64,000 nt of DNA from Polyangiaceae bacterium (GTDB taxonomy: Bacteria > Desulfobacterota > Binatia > UTPRO1), in contig JANNPN010000182.1 in the NCBI GenBank assembly GCA_031400185.1, positions 5,895 through 69,894 of the forward strand, read 5' to 3'. The notes beneath the pieces were generated by a model. The model was not told the origin of the DNA and made no database searches. It saw only the letters and a program-made list of their open reading frames with translations. A program made the position numbers and the translations under genes. Below are positions 1-25,281 of the stretch, one piece after another; position 1 is the stretch's first letter, and every line of letters begins with the position of its first letter.

Positions 1-615
1 CTCGTGAACGAGCTCGCATTGATGTCGGCGAAGCTCGGGATCAACGTCTGGGAGGTGATCGACGCGGCGGCGACCAAGCCGTTCGGCTTCATGCCGTTCT
101 ACCCGGGCCCCGGGCTCGGCGGCCACTGCATTCCAATCGACCCGTTCTACCTCGGCTGGAAGGCCAAGATGAACGGCTTCGAGCCGCGCTTCATCGAGCT
201 TGCCGGACAGATCAACGAGTCGATGCCGAAGTTCGTCGTCGACAAGGTGACCGACGCGCTCAACGACGACGCCAAGTCGGTGCGGAACGCACGGATTCAC
301 GTGCTCGGCGTCGCCTACAAGCGGGACGTGAACGACGTCCGTGAATCGCCCGCGCTGCACGTCATCAAGATGCTCCTCGACAAGGGCGCCAAGGTCACTT
401 ACAGCGACCCGTTCGCGCCGGCGATCCGCGAAGAGGGGATGGAAATGAAGGAGACGCCGGTGCGCGAGGCCCTCGAGGCCGGCACCGACTGCGTGGTGCT
501 CCTGACCGACCACAGCTGCTTCAACTACCAGGAGATCGTCCACCTGGCCCCGATGATCGTCGACACGCGGAACGCACTCCGCGACTTCATCGGCGGAAAC
601 ATCATCCGACTGTAG
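1..615 (+). CDS. nucleotide-sugar dehydrogenase (UDP-glucose/GDP-mannose dehydrogenase family), C-terminal part; 5' end outside window
   Basis: The frame is open from position 1. The motif GGHCIPIDPFYL and the C-terminal UDP-binding domain are typical of UDP-sugar 6-dehydrogenases (WecC/Cap5O-like). The next gene is tightly coupled. Confidence 0.8.
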   Translation, partial: LVNELALMSAKLGINVWEVIDAAATKPFGFMPFYPGPGLGGHCIPIDPFYLGWKAKMNGFEPRFIELAGQINESMPKFVVDKVTDALNDDAKSVRNARIHVLGVAYKRDVNDVRESPALHVIKMLLDKGAKVTYSDPFAPAIREEGMEMKETPVREALEAGTDCVVLLTDHSCFNYQEIVHLAPMIVDTRNALRDFIGGNIIRL

Positions 616-622
616 GTCCGTC

Positions 623-1831
623 GTGGCCGCCATTCCCAGCGCCTGGCCGATCGCGGGGGGGCACGTCGCGGTCGCCCTCGTCATCGGCACCCTCGGACGC
701 GCGGGTGCGGTGCGCCACGTGCTCGATCTCGTGCGTGCGTTCGGCACCGGGCGGCACCGAGTGCGGGTCTACGCGCTTGCGGGAGCATCCGAGCCGGCGG
801 TGGCGCGGCTCCGCGCGCTCGACGTTCCGGTCACCGTGCTGCCGCGACGCTACCCCTACGAGCCCGCGCGGATCGTCGCGCTCGCGCGGGCGTTCAAGCG
901 CGACGGCATCGACGTCGTGCACGCGATCCTTCCGGCGGGCGCCGCGTACGGGGCGCTCGCGGCCCGCCTCGCCGGCGTTCCGACGGTCGTCGTCGCGAGC
1001 CGTGCCGGCGACGCGCGGGAGCAGCGCAGCGTGCGGCCGCTCCTGCATCGCATCTACCGGCATGCGGCCGCGGTCCTGGCCAACACGTGGGCGCAGGCGC
1101 GGCGCCTCGCGGCGGACGCCGACCTTCCACTCGAGCGCGTGCAGGTCGTCTACGATGGGGTCGACCTCGCGCGTCATCCCGCCCCGCGCATGCTGGATGG
1201 CCTCCGCGAGCGCGTGTGGCATCGGCCGCTCGTGATCGGCGGCGCCGGGTCGCGTGAAACGGGGCGCGCGCTCTTCTTCGCGACCGCCGAGCGCATCGTT
1301 GTGCGGCACCCTGATGCCCATTTCGTGTGGCTCCAGGAGGAGGTGGAGGGTGCCGTTCCGTCGGACGGCGCACGGTATGCGGTCCCCGCCGGGGTCTCGA
1401 TGACCTTCGTCCCACTCGGGGACGACCCGGATCCGGTGCTGCATCAGCTGGCGATGCTGTGTGTCACCGGCGACGCGGAGGATCCGGCCGTCGACGTGAT
1501 CCCGGCGGCGATGGCGGCCGGGCGGCCAATCGTGGCGCTCGAGGCACCCGGCGTCGACGAGGTCGTGACGCACGGGACGACCGGGGTGGTCGTCACGCGC
1601 AGCGAGCCGGCGGCGCTCGCGGATGCGGCGCTGGCGCTCCTCGAGGATCGGCCACGCCTTCGGGGCGTCGGTCATGCGGCGCGGTCGCATGCCGAGCGCG
1701 CGCTCGGCGCCGACGCCATGGCCCGTGCCACGGCGGCCGTCTACGAGGACGCGCTGCTCGGCCGCACCACCCCCGTGGAGCCCTCCGGGGTGCGGGCGGC
1801 CGCAGGCGTCGGGGAAGAGCTGCGGCGCTGA
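623..1831 (+). CDS. glycosyltransferase family 4 (GT4, group 1)
   Basis: 402-aa ORF with GT4 architecture: N-terminal Rossmann half, then a C-terminal EX7E-like region (VTGDAEDPAVDVIPAAMAAGRPIVALEAPG). High GC3. An internal GTG near 663 is an alternative start. Confidence 0.8.
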   Translation: MAAIPSAWPIAGGHVAVALVIGTLGRAGAVRHVLDLVRAFGTGRHRVRVYALAGASEPAVARLRALDVPVTVLPRRYPYEPARIVALARAFKRDGIDVVHAILPAGAAYGALAARLAGVPTVVVASRAGDAREQRSVRPLLHRIYRHAAAVLANTWAQARRLAADADLPLERVQVVYDGVDLARHPAPRMLDGLRERVWHRPLVIGGAGSRETGRALFFATAERIVVRHPDAHFVWLQEEVEGAVPSDGARYAVPAGVSMTFVPLGDDPDPVLHQLAMLCVTGDAEDPAVDVIPAAMAAGRPIVALEAPGVDEVVTHGTTGVVVTRSEPAALADAALALLEDRPRLRGVGHAARSHAERALGADAMARATAAVYEDALLGRTTPVEPSGVRAAAGVGEELRR

Positions 1832-1955
1832 GGGGAGGGGGCCTTGCGCGCCTCCTCCGGACGATGGCAAGGGTACCCGCCGCCGCGTGCGGGCCCGAGA
1901 AACTCGCGCGGGCCTGCGTGCCTGCCGCGTCACAACGGAGGATCGAAACGAACCG

Positions 1956-2219
1956 ATGAGCGACAACGCGATGAGACGGCGGCTGCTCAAGGAGTACCGC
2001 CAGGCGAACGACGCCAACAAGGACGTACCGTTTCTGCACACCCGCCAACACCTCACGGAGCGTCTGGGGGAGAGCTATGAGACCCTCGCTCCGCACGTGC
2101 AGTGGCTTGAGCAGAACCGCTACCTGCACTGGAAGGCCGCGGACGTGTTCAAGATCTCGCCGAAGGGCCTGCGCGCCACGCACGCGGACGCGGACTTGTT
2201 GGTGGAGTTCCCGGATTGA
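1956..2219 (+). CDS. hypothetical small protein (87 aa)
   Basis: ATG at 1956 is preceded by GGAGG about 14 nt upstream. Codon bias is coding-like. The stop TGA overlaps the TTG start of the downstream gene. No family recognised. Confidence 0.45.
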   Translation: MSDNAMRRRLLKEYRQANDANKDVPFLHTRQHLTERLGESYETLAPHVQWLEQNRYLHWKAADVFKISPKGLRATHADADLLVEFPD

Positions 2220-4105
2220 GCTCGGCCGAGTCGGCGACGGACGGAGTGCTCGGACGGTCGCTCGCGGGCGGGGCGTTGGCGGGGGCGGTCGTCGGCCTCG
2301 GCGAGGCGGTGATCGTCATTGCGGAGCGCCATCTCGGGATCGACCCGGGACTGCTGTTCTTCGCGTTCCTTGTCTATGGCGGTATCGGCGCGCTGATCGG
2401 CCTCGGGATCGGGATCGCACTTCGCGTGCTGGTGCGCGCGTCGGCGGCGACGGGCTTTGCCCTCGGCGGTGCGGTCGTCCTCGCCGTCCTGGTGACGATC
2501 ATCGGGCGGTTCCGCGTCTTCCGTGACGTCTTCAACGAGACGTTCGACGGTGCCCCGATCTCGCCCTTCATGTTCCAGATCGCGACGGTGGCCGCGGCAA
2601 TCGCCGTCTTCGCGCTCGCCTTCGCGCTCTGGCGGGCGCTGGCGCGGTGGGCTCCGGTCCTCGCCTCCCCGCTGGTGGTGCTGGGGGCGCTCGTGGCGGT
2701 GGTGATCGTCTGCCGCGCCGGCATGGCAATGAGCTCCGGCCCCGTTCCGGTGTCGTCGCCGCTTCAGGAGGCGGTTGCGCCCGCGAAGGGGCCGAACGTG
2801 ATTCTCATCGCGGTCGATACGCTCCGCGCCGATCACCTGTCGTGCTACGGCTCCAAGAACAAGACGCCGACGATCGACGGCCTCGCGGCCGAAGGGACCC
2901 GCTTCGCGCACGCGTTCGCACAGGCCTCGTGGACGCGGCCGTCGTTCGCGACCATCTTCACGTCGCTCTATCCGTCCTCGCACCGCGCGATCCACAAGGC
3001 CGACGCGCTGCCCGACGCGGTCGTGACGCTCGCCGAGGTCATGCAGGGCGCCGGCTATGCGACGGTGGGGTTCGCGAACAACATCAACGTGGCGCCGCTC
3101 TTCGGCTTTCAGCAGGGCTTCGACCAGTACCTCTTCCTCGAGCCCGAGTTCTTCTTCGGCGCGACGGAGTCGGCGGCGCAGCTCACGATCTACAACCAGC
3201 TGCGTCTCATCCGTGAGCGCTTCCTCTCCAAGAAGAAGTGGGTCGAGAATTACTACCAGCCCGCCGACGTCGTCTCGAAGCACGGGCTCGACTGGCTCGC
3301 CCGTCGCGACCAGCAGCGGCCGTACTTCATGTTCCTCCACTACATGGAGCCGCACGATCCGTACTTCGTGCACCCCTACAACGGCGAGGCCTACGCCCGC
3401 GTCGCGAATCCGAACCCCGACCCGTCGCTCGCGGACAAGTACCGCGAGCTCTACGACGGCGCGATTCGTTTCCTCGACGAGGAGCTCGCGAAGCTCTTCG
3501 CCGAGCTGAAGGCGAAGGGGCTGTACGACAACACGCTGATCCTGCTTACCGCCGACCACGGCGAGGAGTTCTACGAGCACGGCGGCTGGTGGCACGGCAC
3601 GACGCTCTACGACGAGCAGCTGAGGGTGCCGCTGATCGTGAAGCCGCCGCAGGGCGGCAGTCAGGGCGTCGTCAGCGAGGCGCTGGTCTCGAGCCTCGAC
3701 ATCGCGCCCACGATCCTCACGGCGGTCGGGATCCCGGTCCCGCAGACGATGATCGGGAAGCCGCTCGGGCTCGCCCCCGGAGCCCCCGGGCCGCGCGACC
3801 ACGTGTTCGCCGAGAGCGAGCTCGAGGGCAATGCGCTCCAGGCCTACCGGAGCGGGGCCATGAAGGTGATCCACGCGAATCCAGGCAACCCGCGCCGTCT
3901 GCCGGAGCACCAGCTCTTCGACATCGCGAGCGACCGTGGTGAGCAGAAGGACCTGATCTCCACCCAGGCCGAGACCGCCAACAAGCTCACCGCCGACATG
4001 GACGCGCTCCAGAGTCACGCCGAGGCGATCGCCGTCGAGTCGACGGGCACGTCGATCGACGCGGCCAGCGAAGAGCGCCTGCGCGCGCTCGGATACGTCC
4101 ACTGA
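2216..4105 (+). CDS. membrane-anchored sulfatase-family (alkaline phosphatase superfamily) protein, LtaS/OpgB-like phospho-alcohol transferase candidate
   Basis: About 5 N-terminal TM helices are followed by a sulfatase-fold domain (VDTLRADHLSCYGSKNKTPTIDGLAAEGTRF). The segment TRPSFATIFTSLYPSSH aligns to the CxPSRASLLTGRYPxxH sulfatase motif, but with Thr at the nucleophile position and Phe instead of Arg. Start is TTG at 2216 or GTG at 2246. Confidence 0.8.
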   Translation: MSSAESATDGVLGRSLAGGALAGAVVGLGEAVIVIAERHLGIDPGLLFFAFLVYGGIGALIGLGIGIALRVLVRASAATGFALGGAVVLAVLVTIIGRFRVFRDVFNETFDGAPISPFMFQIATVAAAIAVFALAFALWRALARWAPVLASPLVVLGALVAVVIVCRAGMAMSSGPVPVSSPLQEAVAPAKGPNVILIAVDTLRADHLSCYGSKNKTPTIDGLAAEGTRFAHAFAQASWTRPSFATIFTSLYPSSHRAIHKADALPDAVVTLAEVMQGAGYATVGFANNINVAPLFGFQQGFDQYLFLEPEFFFGATESAAQLTIYNQLRLIRERFLSKKKWVENYYQPADVVSKHGLDWLARRDQQRPYFMFLHYMEPHDPYFVHPYNGEAYARVANPNPDPSLADKYRELYDGAIRFLDEELAKLFAELKAKGLYDNTLILLTADHGEEFYEHGGWWHGTTLYDEQLRVPLIVKPPQGGSQGVVSEALVSSLDIAPTILTAVGIPVPQTMIGKPLGLAPGAPGPRDHVFAESELEGNALQAYRSGAMKVIHANPGNPRRLPEHQLFDIASDRGEQKDLISTQAETANKLTADMDALQSHAEAIAVESTGTSIDAASEERLRALGYVH

Positions 4106-4112
4106 CGAGCCC

Positions 4113-5792
4113 GTGATCGCGATCCTCGGCCTCGACGGGGCGACGTGGGACCTCGCCGAGCCGTTCATCGAGGCCGGCGACATGCCGACGCTCGCGGCGC
4201 TGCGGAAGCGCGGCGCGCACGGCGTCCTCCGGTCGACCGTTCCCCCGGTGACGTTTCCCGCATGGTCGTCGTTCATGACCGGGACGAATCCGGGGAAGCA
4301 CGGCATCTTCGATTTCACCCGTCGGATGCCGGGGACGTACGAGGTCGCGTTCGTCGGTAGCCGCGACCGCCGCGTGCCGACGATGTGGAAGCTTCTTTCC
4401 GATGCCGGCCGGCGCGTAGCCGTGATCGGCGTTCCGACCACGTACCCGCCCGAGCCCGTGAACGGCATCATGGTCGGCGGCTTCGACAGCCCGGTGGCGA
4501 CCGGCATCGACGGCTCGTTCGTGCACCCGCGGACGTTCTACGACGAGATGACGCGGGCGGTCGGCCCGTACTCGATCACCGACTTCCAGGAGCTGACGAT
4601 CGGCCCGGACTGGCACGCCGACGCGCTCCCAAAAATTCTCGCGGCCGTCGACCGCAAGCGCGACCTCGCGTGCTACGTGCTCCGGCGCGAGCCCTGGGAC
4701 TGCTTCATGCTGCTCTTCGGCGAGGCGGACACCGCGAGCCATCACTTCTGGATGTTCGCCGATCCGCGTTCGCCGCGCTTCGACCCCGCCCGCGCACCAC
4801 GGTTCGGCGGCGCGCTGCGCGATGTCTACCGGCGCCTCGATGCGGCGCTCGGCGCGATCCTCGCCGAGCTGCCCCCGGACGCGACGGTGCTCGTCGCCTC
4901 TGATCACGGCTTCGGCGGCGCCGGGACCACGGTGCTGCACCTGAACCGCTGGCTCGCGGAGCACGGGTGGCTCGCGTTTCGCGCCGGGCGTCGCGAGCTC
5001 GGCGCCAAGGCGGCCCGCGGCGTGCGGCGCGCCGCGCTCGCGTTCCTGCCGCGCGGCATCCAAGAGCGGCTCGTGCGGAGGGGCGGGCGGGCGCTCGCAC
5101 GCCGGCTCGAGAGCTGGTCGCGCTTCGGTGCGATCGACATGGCGCAGACGCACGCGTTTTCGGAGGAGCTCAACTATGCCCCGAGCATCTGGCTGAACGT
5201 TCGCGGGCGCGATCCCGAGGGCGTCGTGGCGCCGGGTGCCGCGTACGACGCGCTCGTCGAGCAGATCCGCCAGGCGCTCCTCGCGTGGCGCCATCCCGCG
5301 AACGGCGTGCCGATCGTCGCGCGCGTCCACCGCCGCGACGAGATCTACGACGGCCCGTTGGTCGCCGGCGCCCCCGATCTCGTCCTCGAGCTTGCGCTCG
5401 AGGACGGCTACTCGTTCCCGTGTCTCCCGACGACACCCGCGGAAGCGCGGAGCATCCGACGTCTCGCCGCGCACGAGCACGTGGCGGGGAAGGGCGGCGG
5501 CATGAACGGCAGCCATCGGCCCGAGGGACTCTGGGTGCTGAGCGGTCCGACCGTGACGCCGACCGCTGCGACCGAGGCCGCGATCGTCGACGTCGCGCCT
5601 TCGGTGCTGCACCTCGCGGGGATGCCCGTGCCGGCGTGGATGGACGGTCACCTCCTTCCCGGCATCGCCGGCGCGGCTACCGTCGCGAACGAGGCGCTGG
5701 AGCTCGGCGCCGAGGCGATCGACCAGGATCACGAGGGCGAGCTCCGCCGACGCCTGCACGCTCTCGGATACCTGAGCGAGCCCGCCGCATGA
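4113..5792 (+). CDS. type I phosphodiesterase / nucleotide pyrophosphatase family protein (alkaline phosphatase superfamily)
   Basis: N-terminal ILGLDGATWDL...PTLAALRKRG...FPAWSSFMTGTNPGKHG matches NPP/PF01663-like metal-site motifs. 559 aa. Confidence 0.8.
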   Translation: MIAILGLDGATWDLAEPFIEAGDMPTLAALRKRGAHGVLRSTVPPVTFPAWSSFMTGTNPGKHGIFDFTRRMPGTYEVAFVGSRDRRVPTMWKLLSDAGRRVAVIGVPTTYPPEPVNGIMVGGFDSPVATGIDGSFVHPRTFYDEMTRAVGPYSITDFQELTIGPDWHADALPKILAAVDRKRDLACYVLRREPWDCFMLLFGEADTASHHFWMFADPRSPRFDPARAPRFGGALRDVYRRLDAALGAILAELPPDATVLVASDHGFGGAGTTVLHLNRWLAEHGWLAFRAGRRELGAKAARGVRRAALAFLPRGIQERLVRRGGRALARRLESWSRFGAIDMAQTHAFSEELNYAPSIWLNVRGRDPEGVVAPGAAYDALVEQIRQALLAWRHPANGVPIVARVHRRDEIYDGPLVAGAPDLVLELALEDGYSFPCLPTTPAEARSIRRLAAHEHVAGKGGGMNGSHRPEGLWVLSGPTVTPTAATEAAIVDVAPSVLHLAGMPVPAWMDGHLLPGIAGAATVANEALELGAEAIDQDHEGELRRRLHALGYLSEPAA

Positions 5793-7048
5793 TGCCCGCG
5801 CTCGCCGCCGTCGAGCGGCGCTATCGCGTGGCGATCGTCGCCGCGTGTCCGTTCCCGGCGTTGCAGGGCTCGCAGCTCCTGATCCGGCGGCTCGCCGAGG
5901 GTCTCCGCGACCGCGGTCACGACCCGGTGGTCGTGACGTACGCCGAGGGCCTCGAGCCCGCGCTCGCGAGCACCGCGGTCCGGCGCATCCCGCGCATTCC
6001 CGGGGTCCGCGCGCTCGGCTCGGGGCCGCGCGTCGCAAAGCTGGTGCTCGACGCAGCCCTGCTGCTCCGCCTCCTCACGGTGCTCCGCCGCGAGTCGATC
6101 GAGGTGATGCACGCGCACAACTACGAGGCGGCGCTGGTCGGACTCGCGGCTCGACGTCTCACGGGCGTGCCGCTCATCTACCACAGCCACAACGCGCTCG
6201 CGGAGGAGCTGCCGACGTACTTCCGAGGCCGTACCGCGCGCCGACTGGCACGCGCCGCCGGCGCGCTCGCCGATCGCGAGGTGCCGCGTCGCGCCGACCA
6301 CTGCATCGCGATCTGTCGCGAGCTCGTCGGGTTTCTGAGAGCGCGCGGTGTGGGCGAGGAAGCGATCGAGATGATCGCGCCGGGGGGCTCGCCCGAGGAG
6401 TTCCCGACCTGCTCGACGGCGGACGTCGCGACGATCCGCGCGCGCTTCGGCTTCGGCGAGCGGCCGCTGCTCCTCTACACCGGGAACCTCGACGGCTATC
6501 AGAACCTCGAGCTGCTGCTCGCGAGCATCGGTGTCGTCCGCCGCACGATCGGCGACGCGCTGCTCGTGCTCGCGACCCACGCGACCCCGCGGCACCTGCC
6601 GCGCCACCTCCGAGGGCTGCCGCCGGGCGTGCGGCTGGTCACCGCCGGCGACTTTGCGACCGTGCGTGACCTCATCCAGGTTGCCGATCTCGCGCTCTGT
6701 CCGCGCCGCGAATGGTCCGGGTTCCCGATGAAGCTCCTCAACTACATGGCGGCGGCGAAGGCCGTCGTCGTGTCCGCCGGGTCCGCGAAAGCGGTGCGCC
6801 ACGGCGTGAACGGCATGGTCGTCGACGCCGACGGCCCCGAGGCGTTCGCTGCTGCGATCGTCACGCTGCTCGCCGACCCGGCCCGCCGGCGCAAGCTCGG
6901 CGCCGCGGCACGCCGCACCGTCGAGGACGAGTACGGCTGGGCGCGCGTCATCGACCAGGTCGAGGCGACGTATGCGACGGTGCTGCAACGACGCGCCGTC
7001 GGGGTCGTTGCCGCCCCCGCGCACCCGCTCGGGATCCTCGAAGCCTGA
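5789..7048 (+). CDS. glycosyltransferase family 4 (GT4)
   Basis: ATG at 5789 overlaps the upstream stop (ATGA). GT4 motifs are present (HAHNYEAALVG; C-terminal E..E region). 420 aa. Confidence 0.8.
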   Translation: MMPALAAVERRYRVAIVAACPFPALQGSQLLIRRLAEGLRDRGHDPVVVTYAEGLEPALASTAVRRIPRIPGVRALGSGPRVAKLVLDAALLLRLLTVLRRESIEVMHAHNYEAALVGLAARRLTGVPLIYHSHNALAEELPTYFRGRTARRLARAAGALADREVPRRADHCIAICRELVGFLRARGVGEEAIEMIAPGGSPEEFPTCSTADVATIRARFGFGERPLLLYTGNLDGYQNLELLLASIGVVRRTIGDALLVLATHATPRHLPRHLRGLPPGVRLVTAGDFATVRDLIQVADLALCPRREWSGFPMKLLNYMAAAKAVVVSAGSAKAVRHGVNGMVVDADGPEAFAAAIVTLLADPARRRKLGAAARRTVEDEYGWARVIDQVEATYATVLQRRAVGVVAAPAHPLGILEA

Positions 7049-7080
7049 ACCGCCAATTCATCGAAGGAGTACAGAACCGC

Positions 7081-8106: not shown

Positions 8107-8135
8107 AGCGCGGCCGCGAGAAAGGACCCCCGAAC

Positions 8136-8786
8136 GTGTCATCCCCCGGAGAGACCGAGCCGCAGCGCGTGTGGGACATCTCGGTGCCGAACCGGCCGGA
8201 CATGCACTTCTATCCGGGCGACCCGATGCTGGAGCAAACGCAGATCCGCGCCATCAAGCGCGGTGACGCGGCGAATCTCACGCATCTTTCCCTCGGCGCC
8301 CACACCGGCACGCACGTCGACGCTCCGGCGCACTTCATCGACGGCGCCCCGACGCTCGAGCGGATCGGGCTCGACCGCATGGTGGGCCCGGCGCGGGTGC
8401 TCGACCTTCGCGGGCTCGCCGCGATCGACGCGAATGCGCTCCGCGGCCACGAGATCCAGCGTGGCGACATCGTCCTCTTCCTCACCGACAACTCGGAGCG
8501 CTGGGCGAAGCCGGGCTTCCAGCAGGACTTCACCTACGTGACGCGCGACGCGGCCGAGTACCTCGTGGAGCGCGGGGTGAAGACGATCGGCATGGACTAT
8601 CTTTCGATCGAACAGTTCGGGAGCAAGACGTTCGAGGTCCACAAGCTCCTGCTCGGCGCGGGAATCCTCATCGTCGAGGGGCTCGACCTCCGTGGGATCG
8701 CCGCGGGTCCGTACATGTTCACATGCCTGCCGCTGAAGCTCGAGGGCGTCGACGGGGCGCCGGCCCGTGCGGTGCTGATGCGGTGA
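8136..8786 (+). CDS. cyclase-family protein (kynurenine formamidase-like metal-dependent hydrolase)
   Basis: GTG start 10 nt after AAAGGA. The motif HxGTHxDAPxH (LGAHTGTHVDAPAHF) is typical of the PF04199 putative cyclase family. 216 aa. Confidence 0.75.
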   Translation: MSSPGETEPQRVWDISVPNRPDMHFYPGDPMLEQTQIRAIKRGDAANLTHLSLGAHTGTHVDAPAHFIDGAPTLERIGLDRMVGPARVLDLRGLAAIDANALRGHEIQRGDIVLFLTDNSERWAKPGFQQDFTYVTRDAAEYLVERGVKTIGMDYLSIEQFGSKTFEVHKLLLGAGILIVEGLDLRGIAAGPYMFTCLPLKLEGVDGAPARAVLMR

Positions 8787-10006
8787 CCGCGTTCGCCGCG
8801 ATCGCCGACGACCTGACCGGCGCCTGCGACGTCGCCGCCGAGCTCGCGACGGCCGGACGGTGCGTGCGCGTCGAGGTCGTCCCGGGCGCGTACGGCGGTG
8901 CGGAGGACGGCGGTCTCGTCGTGGTGAACACCCAGAGCCGCGCGCTCGCCCCTGCAGCGGCCGCGGAGCGCGTGCGTCAGGCGCTTCGCGGGCACGCGGC
9001 GCCGCTCGTGCTGAAGAAGATCGACACCGCGCTCCGTGGTCACGTCGGCGCCGAGCTCGATGCCGCGCTCGACATGCTCGGGGCTCCCGGGTTCGTGCTC
9101 GCAGCGATTCCCGCCGCCGGGCGAGTGACGCGTAACGGCTGTCAGTGGTTCGGGGGGCGACTCCTCGCAGACACCGAGTTCGCGCGCGATCCCGAGGGAC
9201 CCGGTGCCGTCTCGTCGATCCCGGTGGTCGTCGGTCGCGAGAGTCGCCGGCGGAGCGCGGTCGTCGCGCGCGAGATCGTCGCCGCCGGCACGCTCGCGGC
9301 GGAGGTGGCGCGTCAGCGTGCCGCCGGCATCGACCTGTTCGTGATGGACGCCGAAAGCGACGAGGACGTGGCGCGCGCGGTCGGAGCGATCCTGGCGCTC
9401 GGATGCGCGGTCTGTCTGGTCGGGTCGATCGCGCTCGCGGCGGCGCTCGCGCCGCACGTCGGGGCCGCGGCCGGCACGACGGCGCGCGCGCCCGAGCTCC
9501 CGCAGCCGGCGCTCATCGTGAACGGCAGCCTCCACAGCCGCGCGCGGGCGCAGGTGGAGGCAGTGCTGGCGACTGGAGAGGCCGTCACGCTGCGGCCGAC
9601 GGCGCCGCATGTCGCGCGCGACGCCGTCGACGCGTTTCGGCATGGGACGACGGTCGTGCTGGAGCCGGCTCCGGCGGTGTCCGTGCCGACCCACGCGGCG
9701 CTCCGCACGACCGAGACCGCGCTCGCCGACGCCGTCGCCGCGATCCTCGCGGCATCGCCGCCGGCCACGCTGATCTTGATCGGCGGCGAGACCAGTTACG
9801 CGATCCTCCGACGGCTCGGCACCGGCGCGATCGCGGTACACGGGCGGATCGCGCCGCTCGTGGCTTACGGGACGATCCTCGACGGCGCCGCCGCGGGGAC
9901 GGTGCTGGTCACCAAGGGCGGCTCGGGCGGCGAGCCCGACGTCCTCGCGGCGATCGTGCGCGGTAACAATTCCCCAACGGTGCGGAGCGCGGAGGACAAG
10001 GCATGA
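8783..10006 (+). CDS. four-carbon acid sugar kinase family protein (DUF1537/DUF4392, OtnK-like)
   Basis: GTG at 8783 overlaps the upstream stop (GTGA). The N-terminal IADDLTGACD motif, ~407-aa length and two-domain layout match the Otn kinase family. Confidence 0.8.
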   Translation: MTAFAAIADDLTGACDVAAELATAGRCVRVEVVPGAYGGAEDGGLVVVNTQSRALAPAAAAERVRQALRGHAAPLVLKKIDTALRGHVGAELDAALDMLGAPGFVLAAIPAAGRVTRNGCQWFGGRLLADTEFARDPEGPGAVSSIPVVVGRESRRRSAVVAREIVAAGTLAAEVARQRAAGIDLFVMDAESDEDVARAVGAILALGCAVCLVGSIALAAALAPHVGAAAGTTARAPELPQPALIVNGSLHSRARAQVEAVLATGEAVTLRPTAPHVARDAVDAFRHGTTVVLEPAPAVSVPTHAALRTTETALADAVAAILAASPPATLILIGGETSYAILRRLGTGAIAVHGRIAPLVAYGTILDGAAAGTVLVTKGGSGGEPDVLAAIVRGNNSPTVRSAEDKA

Positions 10007-10485
10007 GTGGCGGAACGGAGCTCAAGGTCGCCGACGACACGGTCGTCACGATCGAGTACCGCGCGAGCCTCACGGACGGAAAGCTCGTCGACTCGACGGA
10101 TGACTGCGGGCCGGTCACGTATCTGCACGGGAACGAGCAGATCTTTCCCGCGCTCGAGCAGGCGGTCGACGGCGCGGTCGCGGGTGAGGAGCGGCACCTG
10201 TCGCTCGCGCCGAGCCAGAGCTACGGCGAGCACCGGCCCGACCTGGTGCGGCGCATGCCGCGCGCGCAGATCCCGCCCGAGATCGCGCTCGAGGTCGGAA
10301 AGCGCTACACGATCCGGCCGCCGCGGGGCGAGCCGATGATCTTCCGGTTGGTCGGGGTGGAAGGTGACGAGGTCGTTGCGGATTTCAACAATCCCGCGGC
10401 CGGGCAGGGGCTCGAGATCTGGGCCAAGGTGATCGCGGTCCGGCCGGCCACGGCCGACGAAATCCGGCGGGGGACGCTACGATGA
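10003..10485 (+). CDS. slyD: FKBP-type peptidyl-prolyl cis-trans isomerase, SlyD-like
   Basis: The pattern [18 protein letters not shown]...[16 protein letters not shown]...DFNNPAAGQ is characteristic of SlyD/FkpB. ATGA overlap with the upstream gene. Confidence 0.8.
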
Positions 10486-11255
10486 AGCTGTCGATCGTGA
10501 TGCCGGTCTACAACGAGTCGGCGAGCATCCGGGAAATCGTGCAGCGCGTGCAGGCGTTGCCACACGCGAAAGAGCTCATCATCGTCGACGACGGATCCCT
10601 CGACGGGACGCGCGACGTCCTACGCGAGCTCGCGGGGGGCGAGATCCGCGTCTTCTTCCACGCCAACAATCGCGGCAAGGGTGCGGCGCTCCGGACCGGG
10701 TTCGCGCACGCGCGCGGCGACGTCGTGGTGGTCCAGGACGCGGACCTCGAGTACAACCCGCGCGACATCCCGCCGCTGTTGCTGCCGATCGAGCGCGGCG
10801 AAGCGGACGTCGTGTTCGGTTCGCGCTTCCTCGGGGGACCGCACCGGGTGCTGAACTTCTGGCACTACGTCGGGAACCGCGTGCTGACCCTGCTCTCGAA
10901 CATGTGCACGAACCTGAACCTCACCGACATGGAGACCGGCTACAAGCTCTTCCGGCGCGAGGTCGTGCAACAGATCGAGATCGAATGCGACCGCTTCGGG
11001 TTCGAGCCGGAGATCACCGCGAAGGTGGCCCAGTTGCGCTGCAGAATCTTCGAGCACCCCATCTCCTACGCGGGGCGCGACTACGACCAGGGGAAGAAGA
11101 TCACCTGGCGTGACGGCGTCGCCGCCCTGTACCACATCGTCCGTTTCAGCGTGCGCGGTCGTCGCGTGCGGTCGGCTCCGCCGGTCGCCGTCGAGGAGAT
11201 CGCGGCGCGGCCCGCTCAAGTCGCCGACGTTCGCCGTCTCGACGTCGAGCGCTGA
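10482..11255 (+). CDS. glycosyltransferase family 2, polyprenol-phosphate sugar transferase (DPM1/Ppm1-like)
   Basis: [12 protein letters not shown]...[11 protein letters not shown]...[12 protein letters not shown] carries the GT2 DxD motifs of dolichol/polyprenol-phosphate mannosyl/glucosyl transferases. It overlaps the slyD stop. Confidence 0.8.
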
Positions 11256-11277
11256 CCCTCCACCAAAGGAAGCAGTC

Positions 11278-11532
11278 ATGAGGAAACGCGAAAAATTGAC
11301 GCCCGAGGAGCGCTTTGCGCTCGCCCTCGACCTCATCAAACGCGAGCATTCGTTCGCGGAGGTGTGCTCGCACTACCACGTGAGCCACACGACGGCGTAC
11401 AAGATCCGGAACGCCTTCCTCGAAGGCGGCCGGCGCGCGCTCGCAGGCGCGCGGGCGCGTGAGCCGCTCGACGTGGTGCGCGACGAGGCTGCGACGGACG
11501 GCAACGGCATCGAAGAGAACGGGATCGGATGA
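11278..11532 (+). CDS. small helix-turn-helix protein, IS3-family OrfA-like (HTH_Tnp_1-like), stand-alone
   Basis: AAAGGA RBS 8 nt upstream of the [16 protein letters not shown]...[23 protein letters not shown] resembles the N-terminal HTH of IS3/IS911 OrfA. No transposase catalytic ORF follows. The stop overlaps the next gene's ATG. Confidence 0.5.
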
Positions 11533-13976
11533 GACGGTTTGCGCCCACTGCGGCCGCGGTCGGTGCGGTGCTCGGCGTGCTCGCTCTCTTGGGGCAACCG
11601 GCGCCGAGCGGCGACGCGTATCTCTGCTACAAAGGGACGCCCGTCCACGCAGACTTCCTGCCGGCGTTCGTTCCGCGTCCCGGCCTCGTCGTCCTCGATC
11701 GTTTCAGCAAACCGGTCCCGTCCGATCAGCACCGCCTCGACGTGGTGAAGCCGCTCGCGGTCTGCAACCCGGCCGACGCGGGACACCCGGCGAGTGAGAA
11801 CGTGCGCCTGGAAGCCTACCGGACACGGCTCACGCGCACCGTGCCGAAGCAACCGAAGCGCGCCCCGGGCGTCGTCGAGGTGACCGACCAGCTCGGCACG
11901 TTGAAGCTCGCGCTCGCGTCGGCCGGGCGCGTGCTCCGTCCCGCGTCGACGTTCGACGGGCCGAACGGCGCGCCCGCGCTGCCGCCGACGAGCGTCCACG
12001 ACTTCACCTGCTACGACGCCAAGGTCGCGCGCGCACCCCGCGGGCAGCCGGCGTTTCCGCGCTTCGCGCCGACGTCGCTCGCGGTGAGCGACGATTTCGC
12101 GGCCCGCACCCTGACGCTCTCGAAGCCGACCCGCTTCTGCACCGCGGCCGACGTCGCGGGGCACATGCCGAGCGCGCCGTCGCACCGCGGCGCCCTCGTG
12201 TGTTATCGCGCGCACCTGACGAAGCTTCCGGGCTTTACCCAGCCGCGGTTCGTGAAGCGCGTCCTCTCGTCCAGCAGTCGTTTCGGACCGGAGGTCGTGA
12301 CGCTGCGGGCGATCGAGGAGGTGTGTCTTCCGGCCCGGCTCGCGGGCGACCCGGTGCCGACGCCGACGGAGACCGTGCGGCTGCCGACGCGCACACCGAC
12401 GCCGAGCCGCACGGCGACGCCGTCGCGCACGCGCACGCCGACCCCGAGCCGCACACCCACGGTCACGCCGACGCGGACAGTCTCGATCACCCCGACGCCC
12501 ACGGTGTCGCCGACGCCGACGGTCACCGTGAGCCCGACCCGGACGGTCACGGTGACGCCGACCGCCACGGTGACCGGCACGCCGACGGTCACGGCGACGC
12601 CGACGGTCACGATCTCGCCGACCCCCACCCTGAGCCCGACGCCGACGCTCACGCCGACCTCGACGGCCGCGACGCCCATTCGGACCTCGACGCCGACCGC
12701 GACGGCCACGGCGACCGTCACGCCGACGCCGACCTTCACCGCGAGCGGTACGCCGACCGTGACGTCGACGGCAGCGACGCCCACGAGCACGCCAACCGCC
12801 ACGCGCACCTTCCCGCCGACGGCGACCGTGCCGGCGACCGCGACGGTCACGCTCTCGGCGACGCCCACCGTGACGAGCACGCCGACCGTCACCGTGACCG
12901 CCACGCCGACCGTCACCGCGACGCCGACGCGGACGGTGACGCCGCCGCCGACGCTCACCGCGACGCCGACCGTGACGCGGACCGCAACGCCGACGGTCAC
13001 CGTCACGGGGACGCCGACCCGCACGGCCACCCCCACGATCAGCCGGACGCCGACGCCCACCAAGTCGGCGACGCCGACGGTTACGAAGACTCCGACGCCG
13101 ACGCTGACCGTCACGCCGACGTCCACCAGGACGGCAACGCCGACGGTGACCAAGACGGCGACGCCGACGAGGACGACGACCCCCACGCCGACGCGGACCG
13201 CGACCCCGACGGTGACCAAGACACCGACGCCGACGAAGACCACGACGCCGACCCCCACGCGGACGGCAACGCCGACCGCCACCAGGACGGCGACGCCGAC
13301 GAAGAGCGCGACGCCGACGGTGACCAAGTCGCCGACGCCGACGCTCTCGGCGACGTCGACGCCGACCTTCACCCCGAGCCCGTCGCCGACCGTGTCGCCG
13401 GTCGGCGATCCGATCGCGCTCGACGTGGATCCCGACAACAAGACGATCACGCAGGGCACGACGGCGAACGGGCAGTGCACGGCGATCTACGCGAACGGTG
13501 CGACCCGGAACTACACGCAGCGGGTCGAGTGGTCGTCGAGCGATCCTGCGATCGCCTCGGTCACCAACACCGAAGGCCAGCGCGGCAAGGTGACCGGGAA
13601 CGGTCCCGGAACGATCGTGCTGCGCGCGCGCGATCCGATCACCGGCATCGACTCGAACGACTCGGGGCAGAACGGCTCCATCACCGTGCTCGGCCTGCTC
13701 GAAACCATCGAGCTCACGCCGGTGAGCACGACCGACACCGTTGGCGACGAGCGTTTCTTCACCGCGAAGGGGCACTTCGACGGCGGCACCGAGAGTAACA
13801 TCACCCAGGACGTCGATTACTCGTCGTCCGACCCCAACGTCGCGGTCGCGCCCAACGAGGCCGGGAGGAAGAGTCGTGTGGTCGCGGTCGGGCCTGGCGT
13901 TGCCACCATCCGCGCGACCGATCCAACGACCGGTGTCGTCAGCAACGATGCCACGTACACCGTCGAGGCGCCGTGA
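11529..13976 (+). CDS. secreted multidomain surface protein: signal peptide, 2x novel Cys-containing ~115-aa module, ~350-aa Pro/Thr-rich linker, C-terminal Big_2 (Ig-like) domains
   Basis: N-terminal signal peptide. Two tandem copies of a module starting CYKG / CYDAK with conserved Cys positions. A P/T/S/A/V-only region spans aa ~275-625. The C-terminus has Big_2-like repeats (NYTQ..W.SS.P..A.V...G). It is a paralog of the next gene. Confidence 0.8.
12351..13404 (+). repeat. in-frame tandem degenerate repeats (ACGCCGAC-rich) encoding a Pro/Thr-rich linker
   Basis: About 1 kb of short imperfect repeats translating to (T/S/A/V)PT(P/A/V) units. The antisense and alternative frames give long spurious Arg/Gly-rich or Asp-rich ORFs. 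Confidence 0.8.
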
Positions 13977-14072
13977 GTTGCCTACGGAGCGTCATGTGTC
14001 CATGGTGACGGAGCGCGCCACGTGCCGTGACGTCCGCCGCCGTTCGAAAACACACTCGGAGCACACTCAACG

Positions 14073-16691
14073 ATGACCAAGCTTTGGATCAGCCTCCTCG
14101 TGACCTGTGCGGTCACGCTCGGATCCGTGCCTGCGCTCGCGCAGCCGGTCGGGGACTCCTTCGTCTGCTACAAGAGCCGGCAGCTCGGCCCGCGCGGCGG
14201 TCTGCCGGCGTTCACGCCCCGCCCCGGCGAGGTCGTGATCGACACCTTCAGCACGGCCCGCCCCGAGGATCAGCACAAGGTGGATCTGAAGAAGTCGATC
14301 GGGCTGTGTGCGCCCGCTGGCCTCGAGGGCGATCTCCTCCTCGATCCCGCGATCCACCTCGAAGCGTACGGCATGGCCGTGACCAAGACGTCGCCGCGGC
14401 AGCCGAAGCACGGCGACAGCCTGCACGAGATCGTGAACCGCTTCGGCACGCTGAAGCTCCGGGTCCGCAACGAAAACCGTTTGCTCGCGCCGACTGCGAA
14501 GGCGCTCGGGACGGGCGGCGTTGGCGGGATCGGCGCCACGGTCTTCGACAACTTCAAGTGCTACGACGCCAAGGTCGCGCGCGCCGCGACCGGGGCGCCA
14601 CCGTTTCCCGTCTTCACGCCGACGCAGGTGTCGGTGACCGACCAGTTCGGGACGCGGGTCTACAAGGTGACGAAGCCGAGGCGTTTCTGCGCGCCCGCCG
14701 ACGTCGCGGGCGCCAACCCGTCGTCGCCGACGCACGTCCGCTCCCTCGTCTGCTACCAGGTGCGGGTCGCGTCGACGAAGCCGAAGCAACCGAAGTTCGT
14801 CGCGACGCAGGTCTCCACGCACCCGTCCTTCGGTCCCGAGGCGCTCGTGCTGAACAAGGCGGACGAGCTCTGCCTGCCGTCGTTCAAGGATCCCGGCCAG
14901 CCGACGCCGGTGCCAACGGCGACGCCGGGCGGCGGCCAGCCGGGCTCGGTGCTCGCGATCCGCATCAGCCCGCTGACGCGCTACGTGAGCCCGGGCGGCA
15001 GCTCGACGTTCACCGCGACCGCCGACCTCGTCGGCGGCGGCACGGAGAACTACACGCAGAAGGTCATCTGGACGTCGAACAATGCCGGGGTCGCGCTCGC
15101 AGCGAACGCCACCAACGACCGCAGCCGGATCCAGGCCGTGAGCCCGGGAATCGCCACCATCTCGGCGACCGACCCGGTGAGCGGAGTGACCTCGACGGCG
15201 TCCGGAGACGCCACCTTCAATGTCCCTGGCGCGTTGCTCAGCATCGCGCTCACGCCGGCTGCGCCCGCGCTCGACATCGGTGAAGCGCGGAGCCTGGTCG
15301 CGACCGGCACGTTCGAAGGCAACGTCACGCGCAACATCACGCAGCTGCTGACGTACGCTTCCAGCAATTCCGGAGTCGTCGCCGCGCCGAACGCCGACGG
15401 CAACAAGAGCCGCGTCGAGGGCGTCGCACCCGGCACCGCGACGATTTCCGCGGTCGACACCGTGACGGGCGTCAGCAGCGGCGATTCAGGGGGCAATGCG
15501 ACGGTGAGCGTGCTCGGCGCGCTCGAGAGCATCACGCTGAGCCCGGTCACCAAGACGAAGGCCGCCGGCCAATTCGTGAACTACCTCGCGACGGGGCACT
15601 ACGCGGGCGGCGGCATGCAGAACATCACGCAAGAGGTCGACTACGCGTCGAGCAATCCGAGCGTCGCGACCGCGTCGAATCCGGTCGGCAACAAGGGGCG
15701 CGTCGACACCGTCGCGCCCGGCACCGCCACGATCTCGGCCTCGCACCCGAGCGGCATCACGACGACCGCCGGCGGCAACGACGCCACGCTCACCGTGTCC
15801 GCGGCGGTGACGAACCTTTTGCGCATATCCCTCGCACCGACGTCCGCGACACGCAGCGTGGGCGAGCTCCAGAGGTTCACCGTGACCGGCCACTACGAGG
15901 GCGACGGCGTTGCCAACCTGACCCAGCAGGCCGTGTACAGCTCGTCGAACCCCAGCATGGCCGCAGCACCCAACACCCAGGGCGACAAGAGCCGGGTCGA
16001 CATGGTGGCCCCAGGGGTCGCGACGATTTCGGCGACCTACATCGACCCGAATACCCAGCTCGAGGTGAGCACGACCGATTCCGGGGACGATGCGACGATC
16101 ACCGTGATCGGGGCGCTCGAGCGGATCACGCTCTCGCCGGTGCAGGCGACGCGTGCGTCGGGACAGTCGATCACCTACACGGCGATCGGGCACTTCGGCG
16201 GCGGTTCCACGAAGAACCTCACGCAGCGGGTCGACTACGCGAGCAGCAACCCGGCCGTCGCGACCGCGCCGAACGCGACCGGCAACAAGAGCAAGGTCGA
16301 CACCGTCGCGCCCGGACAGGTCACGATCTCCGCGACCGACACGCTGACGGGCCTCAGTACCACGACGACCGGCGACGACGTGGCGCTGACGGTGATCGGC
16401 GCGCTCGAGCGCATTACCTTGAGCCCCGCGAACGCGACGCGCGCGCCGGGAGGCCTCCAGCGCTACACGGCGACGGGCCACTTCGGCGGTACCGTGACGC
16501 AGAATCTGACGCAGGATGTGCTCTACTCGTCGAGCGACCCCGCAGTCGCGAGCGCGCCGAACGATGAGGGCGATCGGAGCCGCGTCGATGCGCTCGCGCC
16601 GGGAACCGGAACGATCACAGCTACGCACCCGACCGCGAACATCAGCACGACCGACACCGGCGACGACGCGCAGCTGATCGTCGAGCCCTGA
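14073..16691 (+). CDS. secreted protein: signal peptide, 2x novel Cys-containing module, ~8 Big_2 (bacterial Ig-like group 2) repeats
   Basis: The signal peptide ends ALAQP. The N-terminal modules match those of the upstream gene (FVCYKSRQLG..., [12 protein letters not shown]...). Eight ~88-aa repeats carry the consensus N(I/Y)TQ...Y.SSN..VA.A.N..G.KS.V..VAPGTATISA. Confidence 0.85.
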   Translation: MTKLWISLLVTCAVTLGSVPALAQPVGDSFVCYKSRQLGPRGGLPAFTPRPGEVVIDTFSTARPEDQHKVDLKKSIGLCAPAGLEGDLLLDPAIHLEAYGMAVTKTSPRQPKHGDSLHEIVNRFGTLKLRVRNENRLLAPTAKALGTGGVGGIGATVFDNFKCYDAKVARAATGAPPFPVFTPTQVSVTDQFGTRVYKVTKPRRFCAPADVAGANPSSPTHVRSLVCYQVRVASTKPKQPKFVATQVSTHPSFGPEALVLNKADELCLPSFKDPGQPTPVPTATPGGGQPGSVLAIRISPLTRYVSPGGSSTFTATADLVGGGTENYTQKVIWTSNNAGVALAANATNDRSRIQAVSPGIATISATDPVSGVTSTASGDATFNVPGALLSIALTPAAPALDIGEARSLVATGTFEGNVTRNITQLLTYASSNSGVVAAPNADGNKSRVEGVAPGTATISAVDTVTGVSSGDSGGNATVSVLGALESITLSPVTKTKAAGQFVNYLATGHYAGGGMQNITQEVDYASSNPSVATASNPVGNKGRVDTVAPGTATISASHPSGITTTAGGNDATLTVSAAVTNLLRISLAPTSATRSVGELQRFTVTGHYEGDGVANLTQQAVYSSSNPSMAAAPNTQGDKSRVDMVAPGVATISATYIDPNTQLEVSTTDSGDDATITVIGALERITLSPVQATRASGQSITYTAIGHFGGGSTKNLTQRVDYASSNPAVATAPNATGNKSKVDTVAPGQVTISATDTLTGLSTTTTGDDVALTVIGALERITLSPANATRAPGGLQRYTATGHFGGTVTQNLTQDVLYSSSDPAVASAPNDEGDRSRVDALAPGTGTITATHPTANISTTDTGDDAQLIVEP

Positions 16692-16705: not shown

Positions 16706-16795
16706 GGGGGAGATTGCGCGCATCAGCGCGCAGGGAATTGCGCGCGTCAGCGGGCGGGGATTGCGCGCTCAGCGCGCAGGGGATTGCGGCGGCAG
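16706..16795. repeat. three to four tandem ~23-nt palindromic units (ATTGCGCGC-N-TCAGCGCGCAGGG), each able to form a GCGCGC hairpin
   Basis: Direct repeats are visible between the convergent Big_2 gene (+) and the histidine kinase (-). The last units overlap the 3' end of the kinase CDS. This is a likely bidirectional terminator or REP-like element. Confidence 0.5.
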
Positions 16796-25263: not shown

Positions 25264-25281
25264 CGCGCGGAGGAGGATTCC

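Follow-up and report, generated by a model that had tools for sequence, protein, structure and literature searches.

A gene array of Candidatus Binatia as part of a possible composite cell-envelope glycan locus with accessory exported proteins

What connects a run of glycan and phospho-transfer enzymes with the two exported proteins encoded at its end? The question is raised by the array of genes g1 to g14 (Table 1), which occupies positions 1–16691 of a 64,000-nucleotide stretch of contig JANNPN010000182.1 (assembly GCA_031400185.1, a Polyangiaceae bacterium placed by GTDB among the Binatia); this whole stretch is hereafter called the window. An initial annotation of the same DNA proposed a dedicated surface-protein O-glycosylation or glycoconjugate-decoration system with its own substrate proteins. 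The chemistry that it named, glycan and phospho transfer, is supported by the family assignments. Comparison with related loci points to a broader role, and we give about an even chance to the reading that the array is part of a composite cell-envelope glycan locus to which the exported proteins are accessory.

Scanning a genome collection with g5, the gene for an NPP-type enzyme, yielded 15 loci, all from Candidatus Binatia or 'delta proteobacterium' metagenome-assembled genomes (MAGs). All window proteins were compared with these loci by tblastn, supplemented by contig look-ups, and presence or absence was called at E<=1e-6 to 1e-8. The relatives are all MAGs or metagenome contigs, and frameshifts occur in some of them (L016, L021). 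It turned out that in relatives the array extends 5' of window position 1 with genes for a GT-C glycosyltransferase, a MOP flippase, a second cytosolic NPP-type enzyme (NPP2) and a CobW/COG0523 GTPase. The conserved order is GT-C, Wzx, NPP2, CobW, dehydrogenase, g3, g4, g5, g6, PdxA, cyclase, kinase and FKBP. The array had been thought to begin at the dehydrogenase gene; that gene, g1, is in fact truncated at the start of the window, and in relatives four further genes of the same direction lie ahead of it. Conservation of gene order, which the initial annotation had proposed to check, is seen for the enzymes, which keep a fixed order across the 15 loci and, through FKBP, in a sister clade, and is not seen for g2, g11, g12 and the exported proteins, all of which are variable. 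Positions 1–16691 thus appear to represent the 3' three-quarters of a composite, vertically inherited locus of Candidatus Binatia with about 20 genes.

The sister clade, in which g5 is 50–55% identical, has the order Wzx, NPP2, CobW, dehydrogenase, g3, g4, g5, g6, PdxA, cyclase, kinase, FKBP, epimerase and histidine kinase. None of g11, g12, g13 and g14 was found in its loci; where the window has these genes, between the FKBP gene and the epimerase, the sister clade has a minus-strand PcRGLX/GH127-like glycan-degrading enzyme. We also observed an extra NPP-like open reading frame (ORF), 31–36% identical to g5, just 5' of g4 (between g3 or CobW and g4) in sister-clade loci L040, L048, L055, L061, L073 and L091, which brings these arrays to four alkaline-phosphatase-superfamily genes.

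How much of this arrangement survives at larger evolutionary distances? Homologs of g5 number 1821, and a metagenome scan with a g5 alignment returned 586 relatives, 80 of whose loci were annotated. Among loci with a g5 identity of at least 65%, a GT4 glycosyltransferase gene lies directly downstream in 4/4, g4 directly upstream in 5/6, PdxA is present in 2/2 and an exported DUF7450/Big_2 protein in 1/1. The corresponding counts are 16/17, 14/14, 9/10 and 0/3 at 50–65% identity, and 26/35, 14/35, 2/26 and 0/15 below 50%. Overall, a GT4 gene is found directly 3' of g5 in 46 of the 56 testable metagenome loci and g4 directly 5' of it in 33 of 55. No gene of the array is conserved more widely than g5. 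The evolutionary core is the g5+g6 pair, often preceded by g4, and nothing else of the array is shared by distant lineages.

The distant contexts of the g4–g5–g6 trio are themselves informative. In four loci of another lineage (L024, positions 1061–8286, and L039, L044 and L097) the trio heads a polysaccharide-export locus of the order NusG, g4, g5, GT4(::Wza), Wzz, ParA-like, DegT and Bac_transf. The GT4 of these loci is called as a single ORF with a Wza-like Poly_export/SLBB domain, and Wzz, a second sulfatase-fold gene and the ParA-like gene follow. In L096 the trio lies 3' of Bac_transf. On a Chloroflexi-like contig (L020, 5682–7835) it is preceded by a GT-C of the PMT_2-TPR type with C-terminal TPR repeats; archaeal-type mevalonate pathway genes were noticed nearby on the same contig. 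Because the association of g4, g5 and g6 survives at 38–50% g5 identity and a GT-C co-occurs with the trio in the Chloroflexi-like context, we take at least this core to be functionally linked.

The layout of the g4 product is known from LtaS and EptA: about five N-terminal transmembrane (TM) helices are followed by an extracytoplasmic domain of the alkaline-phosphatase superfamily, in which Thr takes the place of the nucleophile. The TM segments (residues 15–37, 42–78, 80–103, 113–144 and 146–175) precede the catalytic domain. Its best alignments are to S1 sulfatases: T-R-P-S-F of g4 is aligned with S-T-P-S-R of PDB chain 6s20, at the formylglycine motif C/S-x-P-x-R, and SWTRPS is invariant in orthologues, with no change of the nucleophile Thr in 16 sequences. 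We rejected the possibility that g4 is a true formylglycine-dependent S1 sulfatase, considering that Thr replaces the formylglycine Cys/Ser and that five TM segments precede the catalytic domain. Curated cutoffs are not reached for LtaS (38.5 vs 970 bits), YejM (33.7 vs 825) or EptA (22.1 vs 561). We therefore regard g4 as a putative LtaS/EptA-style extracytoplasmic phosphoryl-transfer enzyme, though by sequence it falls outside those families. In one Binatia species (L012 and L029, 9699–10001) g4 is entirely absent, and g3 stands directly 5' of g5.

For g5, neither a signal peptide nor a TM segment is predicted, unlike in secreted NPPs. Its Thr-containing metal-site motif (VTFPAWSSFMTG..NPGKHG) is invariant in orthologues, and its sole sequence match in PDB is the N-terminal part of phosphonoacetate hydrolase. 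Literature searches on COG3379, on Binatia glycosyltransferases and on the combination of the three families returned nothing relevant.

What glycan might these enzymes handle? The full-length g1 orthologue in L017 scores 445 bits on TIGR03026, with UDP-ManNAc dehydrogenase (296 and 275 bits) and TviB (246 bits) as the best specific models. Judged by these scores, the dehydrogenase is of the WecC/TviB type, acting on UDP-N-acetylhexosamine (UDP-HexNAc), and not of the Ugd type. Some loci also carry a TviC-like epimerase. Since the full-length dehydrogenase is WecC/TviB-type and this epimerase is TviC-like, the sugar is probably a HexNAc-uronic acid. Of the two genes that follow g1, the glycosyltransferase gene g2 is variable, being detected by tblastn only in L002–L005 and L016–L018; where it is missing, g3 starts within ~25 nt of the dehydrogenase gene. 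g3 has no Pfam or NCBIfam match. Its 85 homologs are all at least 53% identical and come from the same lineage, and it is better conserved (67–94% identity) than the neighboring genes. The AF2 model of g3 (pLDDT 87) resembles, according to Foldseek, MarR/DtxR-type winged helix-turn-helix proteins (probability up to 1.0, TMq 0.5–0.69, E ~0.03), and g3 is thus confidently modeled as a winged-helix protein.

The upstream GT-C, of ~640 amino acids (aa) with 11 predicted TM segments, is found in all relatives whose sequence extends far enough. It scores 23.5–25.8 bits with PMT_2 against a cutoff of 26.1 and 18–24.5 bits with PMT against a cutoff of 22.7, with only L011 passing; the GT-C of L018 has a precomputed Pfam match, and no sequence match to any solved structure in PDB was found. 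The initial annotation had stated that no PMT-type O-mannosyltransferase is present. This holds for the 14 window proteins at 1–16691, none of which matches PF02366 or PF13231, the window opening inside g1; it does not extend to relatives, where the PMT/PMT_2-borderline GT-C is encoded a short way upstream.

With family membership and gene context as a guide, the components could be assembled as follows. The WecC/TviB-type dehydrogenase would make a UDP-HexNAc-uronic acid. The GT4 enzymes, together with the NPP-type g5, would build a lipid-linked or lipid-anchored glycan at the cytoplasmic face of the membrane, and the MOP flippase would export it. Outside the membrane, the GT-C would add a sugar from a polyprenyl-phosphate donor, made by g11 in the subclade that has g11, and g4 would transfer or trim a phospho-substituent. 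CobW, and perhaps the SlyD-like FKBP, might supply metal to the three alkaline-phosphatase-superfamily enzymes. LpxD is encoded in the window, from which it follows that the organism makes lipid A and hence is diderm. An Arn/Ept-like pathway of lipid A modification was found to be unsupported: ArnA- or ArnB-like genes were not detected, the dehydrogenase is of the WecC/TviB and not the Ugd type, and the trio also occurs in the Chloroflexi-like context.

Several observations weigh against such an envelope-glycan locus. The upstream genes are attributed to the window's locus from relatives only. Downstream of the array, unrelated genes (histidine kinase, ABC-2 transporter, CtaA/CtaB, HisG) are conserved just as the array is, and much of the synteny may therefore be simple inheritance. 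The Binatia loci examined contain no initiating phosphoglycosyltransferase, Wzy polymerase, ligase or Wza/Wzc, which argues that this is not a complete canonical polysaccharide pathway. The GT-C belongs to a clan that includes protein O-mannosyltransferases, and the TPR architecture of the L020 GT-C is that of the eukaryotic TMTC protein O-mannosyltransferases. An exported protein adjoins the array in 12 of the 15 loci of the clade. Finally, no characterised member of the g5/g6 pair was found in the literature.

Exported proteins g13 and g14 are paralogues with six conserved Cys in their double N-domains. Big_2 (PF02368) matches six stretches of g14 (116.4 bits) and scores 26 bits in g13, where two units align to g14 in BLASTP. 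DUF7450 (PF24247) scores 18.7 bits in g14 against a gathering cutoff of 27, and the homologs P0128–P0131 carry PF24247. The family of DUF7450-like N-domains has 2196 related cluster representatives (phmmer), with the domain at either end of proteins of 200–1200 aa. The g14 N-domain is modeled (pLDDT 86.7) as two beta modules with no solved relative. Distant DUF7450 proteins occur in unrelated gene contexts. The DUF7450-Big_2 exported proteins are probably surface or periplasmic binding proteins. The linker of g13 had been described as about 350 aa of Pro, Thr and Ser only. A long Pro/Thr-rich (PT-rich) stalk does exist, and it is the only PT-rich segment in the window, but just 68% of its 362 aa are P+T+S (T 41.7%, P 19.9%, S 6.9%), the rest being V, A, R and K.

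An early impression, gained from L018 alone, that exported proteins are rare was corrected once all loci were analysed: a DUF7450-Big_2 protein stands at the 3' end in 12 of the 15 loci of the window's clade and is missing from L008, L012 and L018. There is one copy in L002, L005, L007, L009, L010, L011 and L016, and there are two in the window, L004, L013, L017 and also L021, where the genes are fragmented by frameshifts. N-domains are 39–46% identical where g5 stays at 71–75%. Stalks are absent from L002 and L005, measure 50–190 aa in L007, L009–L011 and L016, and reach the length of the g13 type in L004 (525 aa), L017 (364 aa) and L013 (~254 aa). Translational coupling into the secreted-protein gene, another feature of the initial annotation, is borne out by a start–stop overlap with g12 in the window, L004 and L017, and is replaced elsewhere by a spacer of 70–400 nt. 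Most related Binatia loci have g12 at the corresponding place, even L008 and L012, where exported proteins are missing; it is absent from L005 and L018. That g12 might be what is left of an IS481/IS630 transposase, and so mark an insertion, was rejected, as its NCBIfam matches are weak and its position is kept in most related loci, L008 and L012 among them. Altogether, g12 with g13 and g14 constitutes a clade-specific, copy-number-variable, fast-evolving and dispensable tail, whose members are neither obligatory partners nor proven substrates of the enzymes.

The GT2 enzyme g11 precedes this tail and is also variable, being absent in L007, L009, L010, L011 and L012. Its best NCBIfam models all remain below cutoff: AglJ (118 vs 325 bits), PpgS (87 vs 370), ArnC (74 vs 529) and PgfS (72.5 vs 500). 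No hydrophobic segment was found in its 257 aa, so it is without a C-terminal membrane anchor of the GtrB/ArnC type. DPM1-type enzymes without TM segments exist, so the missing anchor is compatible with polyprenyl-phosphate synthase activity.

Between the trio and g11 lie g7 to g10. Together with g12, these genes (PdxA, cyclase, DUF1537 kinase, FKBP and HTH_23) belong to families without a known glycan role. g7 passes the cutoff of TIGR00557 (325.8 vs 290.35 bits) and falls below that of the PdxA2-specific D-threonate-4-phosphate dehydrogenase model (278.7 vs 583 bits), scores that fit PdxA and PdxA2 alike. The orthologue of g8 in L017 (14039–15259) is a 406-aa Aldolase_II::Cyclase fusion with an aldolase half resembling OtnC (107 bits). 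Such a class II aldolase half is fused to g8 in most loci and is cleanly absent in the window, L004, L005, L008 and L012; in the window, the gap from PdxA to the cyclase gene is just 29 nt. g9 scores 181 bits with the D-threonate kinase model against a cutoff of 450 and stays below the specific cutoffs of DtnK and OtnK. g10 likewise falls short with PRK10737 (84 bits, cutoff 174). The PdxA2, cyclase and DUF1537-kinase genes may form a four-carbon acid-sugar phosphate module, which is found in fixed association with g4–g5–g6 in two clades.

At the level of gene layout, the window is ~70% G+C, and raw ORF lists are consequently full of spurious frames. Genes at 1–16691 were called from a position-specific GC (GC3 frame) plot with start-codon mapping, which confirmed the layout first described: 14 consecutive plus-strand genes with tight junctions and two larger gaps. 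From g1 to g14 the junctions measure 7, 124, -4, 7, -4, 32, 29, -4, -4, -4, 22, -4 and 96 nt. Gene identities given earlier were likewise right for the NDP-sugar dehydrogenase, the two GT4s, the membrane sulfatase-fold enzyme, the NPP enzyme, the GT2 and the two paralogous signal-peptide Big_2 proteins. The second GT4, which had been placed at the array start, is actually 3' of the NPP gene, and PdxA, the cyclase (PF04199), the DUF1537 kinase, the FKBP and the HTH_23 protein, then left unidentified, and the 87-aa gene g3, then unnamed, can be added. A scan of the gaps ahead of g3 and between g13 and g14 detected no plus-strand terminator-like or promoter-like sites in either; the whole region has 10 terminator-like sites vs 5.6±2.3 in shuffles. 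The Rfam scan of the entire window gave no matches, and a 103-nt tRNA-Pro(tgg) called by ARAGORN on the minus strand at 3166–3268 was dismissed as spurious, for it falls within the coding sequence of g4 and Rfam finds no tRNA there. A second plus-strand co-directional run (23566–38702) comprises at least 12 unrelated housekeeping genes, including LpxD, YceD, FabD, SHMT, RibBA, LeuRS, HolA and MurJ. Tight co-directional packing is ordinary for this genome, and the array is a real but ordinary operon-like run. Its conserved downstream boundary is an orphan histidine kinase, found at the same position in L002, L005, L007, L009–L012, L018 and L021 and in sister-clade L048 and L073; this position is kept even in loci and clades without exported proteins. 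The right-hand part of the window matches a Logan metagenome contig exactly, and the genome from which the window comes, of Candidatus Binatia, was itself assembled from metagenome data.

Table 1. Coordinates and predicted identities of the array genes, of their gaps and flank, and of an enzyme of the sister clade (window positions unless a locus is named).
Feature	Position	Strand	Description	Basis or detail
g1	1..615	+	C-terminal 204 aa of NDP-sugar 6-dehydrogenase, cut by window edge	Pfam UDPG_MGDP_dh, UDPG_MGDP_dh_C
g2	623..1831	+	GT4 glycosyltransferase	Pfam Glyco_transf_4, Glycos_transf_1
Gap	1832..1955	.	124-nt intergenic gap ahead of g3	
g3	1956..2219	+	87-aa lineage-restricted predicted winged-helix protein	stop overlaps g4 start
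g4	2216..4105	+	5-TM membrane enzyme, extracytoplasmic sulfatase-fold (alkaline-phosphatase superfamily) domain, Thr nucleophile	PF00884, 182.6 bits
g5	4113..5792	+	cytosolic NPP-type alkaline-phosphatase-superfamily enzyme (COG3379 type)	PF01663, 149.9 bits vs cutoff 23
g6	5789..7048	+	GT4 glycosyltransferase, partner of g5	Pfam
g7	7081..8106	+	PdxA/PdxA2-family NAD-dependent dehydrogenase	PF04166, 327.9 bits
g8	8136..8786	+	cyclase-family metal hydrolase	PF04199
g9	8783..10006	+	DUF1537 four-carbon acid-sugar kinase family	PF07005 146.2 bits, PF17042 47 bits (SBD_N, NBD_C)
g10	10003..10485	+	SlyD-like FKBP peptidyl-prolyl isomerase	PF00254
g11	10482..11255	+	soluble GT2 resembling polyprenyl-phosphate sugar synthases	PF00535, 135.9 bits vs cutoff 23.3
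g12	11278..11532	+	84-aa HTH_23 protein	stop overlaps g13 start
g13	11529..13976	+	exported; signal peptide, double DUF7450-like N-domain with 6 Cys, 362-aa Thr/Pro-rich stalk, 2 Big_2	
g13 stalk	12351..13436	+	Thr/Pro-rich stalk, aa 275-636	degenerate tandem repeats, TRF periods 18, 24, 42, 66 nt
Gap	13977..14072	.	96-nt intergenic gap separating paralogues g13 and g14	
g14	14073..16691	+	exported paralogue; signal peptide, double DUF7450-like N-domain, ~20-aa linker, 6 Big_2	
Histidine kinase	16769..17965	-	orphan, convergent on g14	HisKA, HATPase_c; no adjacent response regulator
PcRGLX/GH127-like enzyme	L046 16106-18355; L055 16690-19482; L076 8488-10968	-		

Could the array instead be a protein-glycosylation system encoded beside its substrate? 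In a Pgf-like scheme of this kind, g11 would charge polyprenyl phosphate and the upstream GT-C would pass the sugar on, in the periplasm, to Thr in PT-rich stalks, either on g13 and its relatives or on PT-linker proteins genome-wide. The parts are suggestive: a PMT/PMT_2-borderline GT-C in all relatives that reach that far, a TviC-like epimerase in some loci, a stalked exported protein whose start overlaps g12 by 4 nt, and an exported neighbor in most of the clade. The Streptococcus mutans Pgf cluster, in which GT-A, epimerase and GT-C enzymes are encoded with Ser/Thr-rich adhesin substrates, provides a precedent (PMC11092751), and the best matches of g11 are polyprenyl-phosphate sugar synthases, PgfS included, although it has no TM anchor and falls below every equivalog cutoff. 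It is the comparison among loci that makes us consider this scheme rather unlikely. A dedicated system with its own substrates does not fit L008, L012, L018 and the whole sister clade, which keep the enzymes without an exported protein (the GT-C and the rest of the array persist there). Nor does the gene order always co-occur with the PT-linker protein, the comparative check set by the initial annotation: the GT2 and the stalk do not co-vary, as L002 and L005 have GT2 and GT-C without a stalk, whereas L007, L009, L010 and L011 have a stalk of 50–190 aa without the GT2. The translational coupling is restricted to three loci, PT-rich linkers are also found in several DUF7450 proteins from unrelated contexts, and O-glycosylation with a monosaccharide leaves the MOP flippase, two GT4s, three alkaline-phosphatase-superfamily enzymes and the UDP-HexNAc dehydrogenase unexplained.

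The remaining alternatives differ in how much unity they ascribe to the locus. At one extreme, nothing would be shared: glycan enzymes, acid-sugar or pyridoxal phosphate metabolism, a chaperone, regulators and adhesins would be unrelated modules kept adjacent by inheritance and by the tight packing of a high-GC genome. The second co-directional run of housekeeping genes, the equal conservation of the downstream flank and the coming and going of g2, g11, g12, the epimerase and the exported proteins with the remainder undisturbed all fit this view. It nevertheless seems an unlikely account, given that the trio stays together at 38–50% g5 identity, that the GT-C accompanies it in the Chloroflexi-like context and that six 4-nt start–stop overlaps suggest co-translation. 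At the other extreme stands one integrated pathway to a new anionic envelope polymer or glycolipid. Here the DUF1537 kinase, the PdxA2-type dehydrogenase and the aldolase::cyclase would make a phosphorylated C3/C4 acid-sugar unit, g6 would glycosylate it, g5 and NPP2 would process it and g4 would install it outside; the product would be teichoic- or teichuronic-acid-like, and the Big_2 proteins would bind it. There is established precedent for a glycosyltransferase that is paired with a phosphatase and uses a phosphorylated acceptor (GpgS/GpgP, MshA, sucrose-phosphate synthase), and pdxA is also a known passenger in an E. coli envelope operon, which counts the other way. PdxA, cyclase, kinase and FKBP do follow the trio in fixed order in two clades, with PdxA in 9/10 testable loci at 50–65% g5 identity and in all related Binatia loci of sufficient length, and three alkaline-phosphatase-superfamily enzymes share one array with a metallochaperone. 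On the other hand, the acid-sugar module is nearly never found with more distant g5–g6 pairs (2/26), its aldolase half is lost in five loci, and PdxA2/DUF1537/OtnC modules are known from catabolic or salvage pathways (PMC9997740). These considerations make the integrated pathway distinctly improbable in our estimate. Highly doubtful, too, is the specific version in which, in Binatia and a sister clade, a HexNAc-uronic-acid glycan would receive a phosphorylated four-carbon acid-sugar unit from the g5+g6 pair working together with the DUF1537 kinase, the PdxA2-type dehydrogenase and the aldolase::cyclase, g4 and the GT-C would finish the product outside, and the DUF7450-Big_2 proteins would be its binding or glycosylated partners; if true, a diderm phylum would have a new anionic envelope polymer resembling teichoic acid.

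The reading as a composite envelope-glycan locus has implications beyond this genome. Binatia are abundant uncultured soil and sediment bacteria, and a locus conserved across the class is a reasonable entry point to their envelope chemistry. The g5+g6 pair occurs in hundreds of lineages, often with the Thr-nucleophile membrane 'sulfatase', and once its reaction is known, many envelope genes now labeled hypothetical could be annotated. Two leads are worth pursuing, this widespread g5+g6(+g4) module and the acid-sugar module embedded in the array. A self-contained O-glycosylation system with its own substrates, if true, would extend the Pgf/PMT type to a diderm phylum, a claim weakened by the comparative data.

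How does the locus compare with systems that are already known? With the LtaS, EptA and OpgB phosphotransferases g4 shares five TM helices at the N-terminus, a catalytic domain on the extracytoplasmic side and Thr as the nucleophile residue; unlike in those enzymes, its catalytic domain is nearer to S1 sulfatases and phosphonate monoester hydrolases (158 bits with an arylsulfatase model vs 38.5 with LtaS and 22 with EptA). The genes g9, g7 and the aldolase half of g8 in relatives represent, side by side, the three families of DUF1537 kinase/PdxA2/OtnC catabolism (Zhang et al. 2016 PNAS, cited in PMC9997740). Here, in contrast, none of the specific equivalog cutoffs is reached, the aldolase is either joined to a cyclase-family hydrolase or missing, and the module sits in a glycan locus rather than in a catabolic operon with transporter and dehydrogenase.

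Among protein-glycosylation systems, Pgf of S. mutans (PgfS, PgfE and PgfM1/M2 with Cnm, CnaB and CbpA; PMC11092751) is the best precedent for what was initially proposed, since it too brings together GT-A, epimerase and GT-C enzymes with exported, adhesin-like Ser/Thr-rich proteins. The Pgf GT-Cs are of the YfhO family, whereas the GT-C here is PMT/PMT_2-like and the host is diderm; moreover, stalk and GT2 do not co-vary, and at least nine further enzymes are without a Pgf counterpart. Actinobacterial protein O-mannosylation (Ppm1 with Pmt, GT39) follows the same logic, in which Pro/Thr-rich linkers are modified by a GT-C of the PMT clan together with a DPM1-like GT2. The GT-C here differs in lying just at the Pfam threshold, in having no match to a solved structure and in being embedded in a much larger enzyme set.

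In the window's subclade, the array also resembles the three-component systems of extracytoplasmic glycosylation (Gtr, ArnC/ArnEF/ArnT and CsbB/GtcA/YfhO; PMC11127046) in having a g11-type GT2, a multi-TM GT-C and a flippase. The flippase, however, is of the MOP/Wzx type and not of the small GtrA or ArnEF type, g11 is without the C-terminal TM helices of GtrB/ArnC and below all equivalog cutoffs, and g11 is missing from five loci that keep the GT-C, which itself lies outside the window and is read in relatives. As to exopolysaccharide and capsule loci of the Wzx/Wzy and Wza/Wzc kind, the Binatia array differs from them in its GT-C and its three alkaline-phosphatase-superfamily enzymes, and in being without the initiating phosphoglycosyltransferase, Wzy and Wza/Wzc. 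It shares with them, when relatives are included, the MOP flippase, GT4s, NDP-sugar dehydrogenase and epimerase, and in L024, L039, L044 and L097 the g4–g5–g6 trio stands at the very head of a locus with NusG, Wza, Wzz, DegT and Bac_transf.

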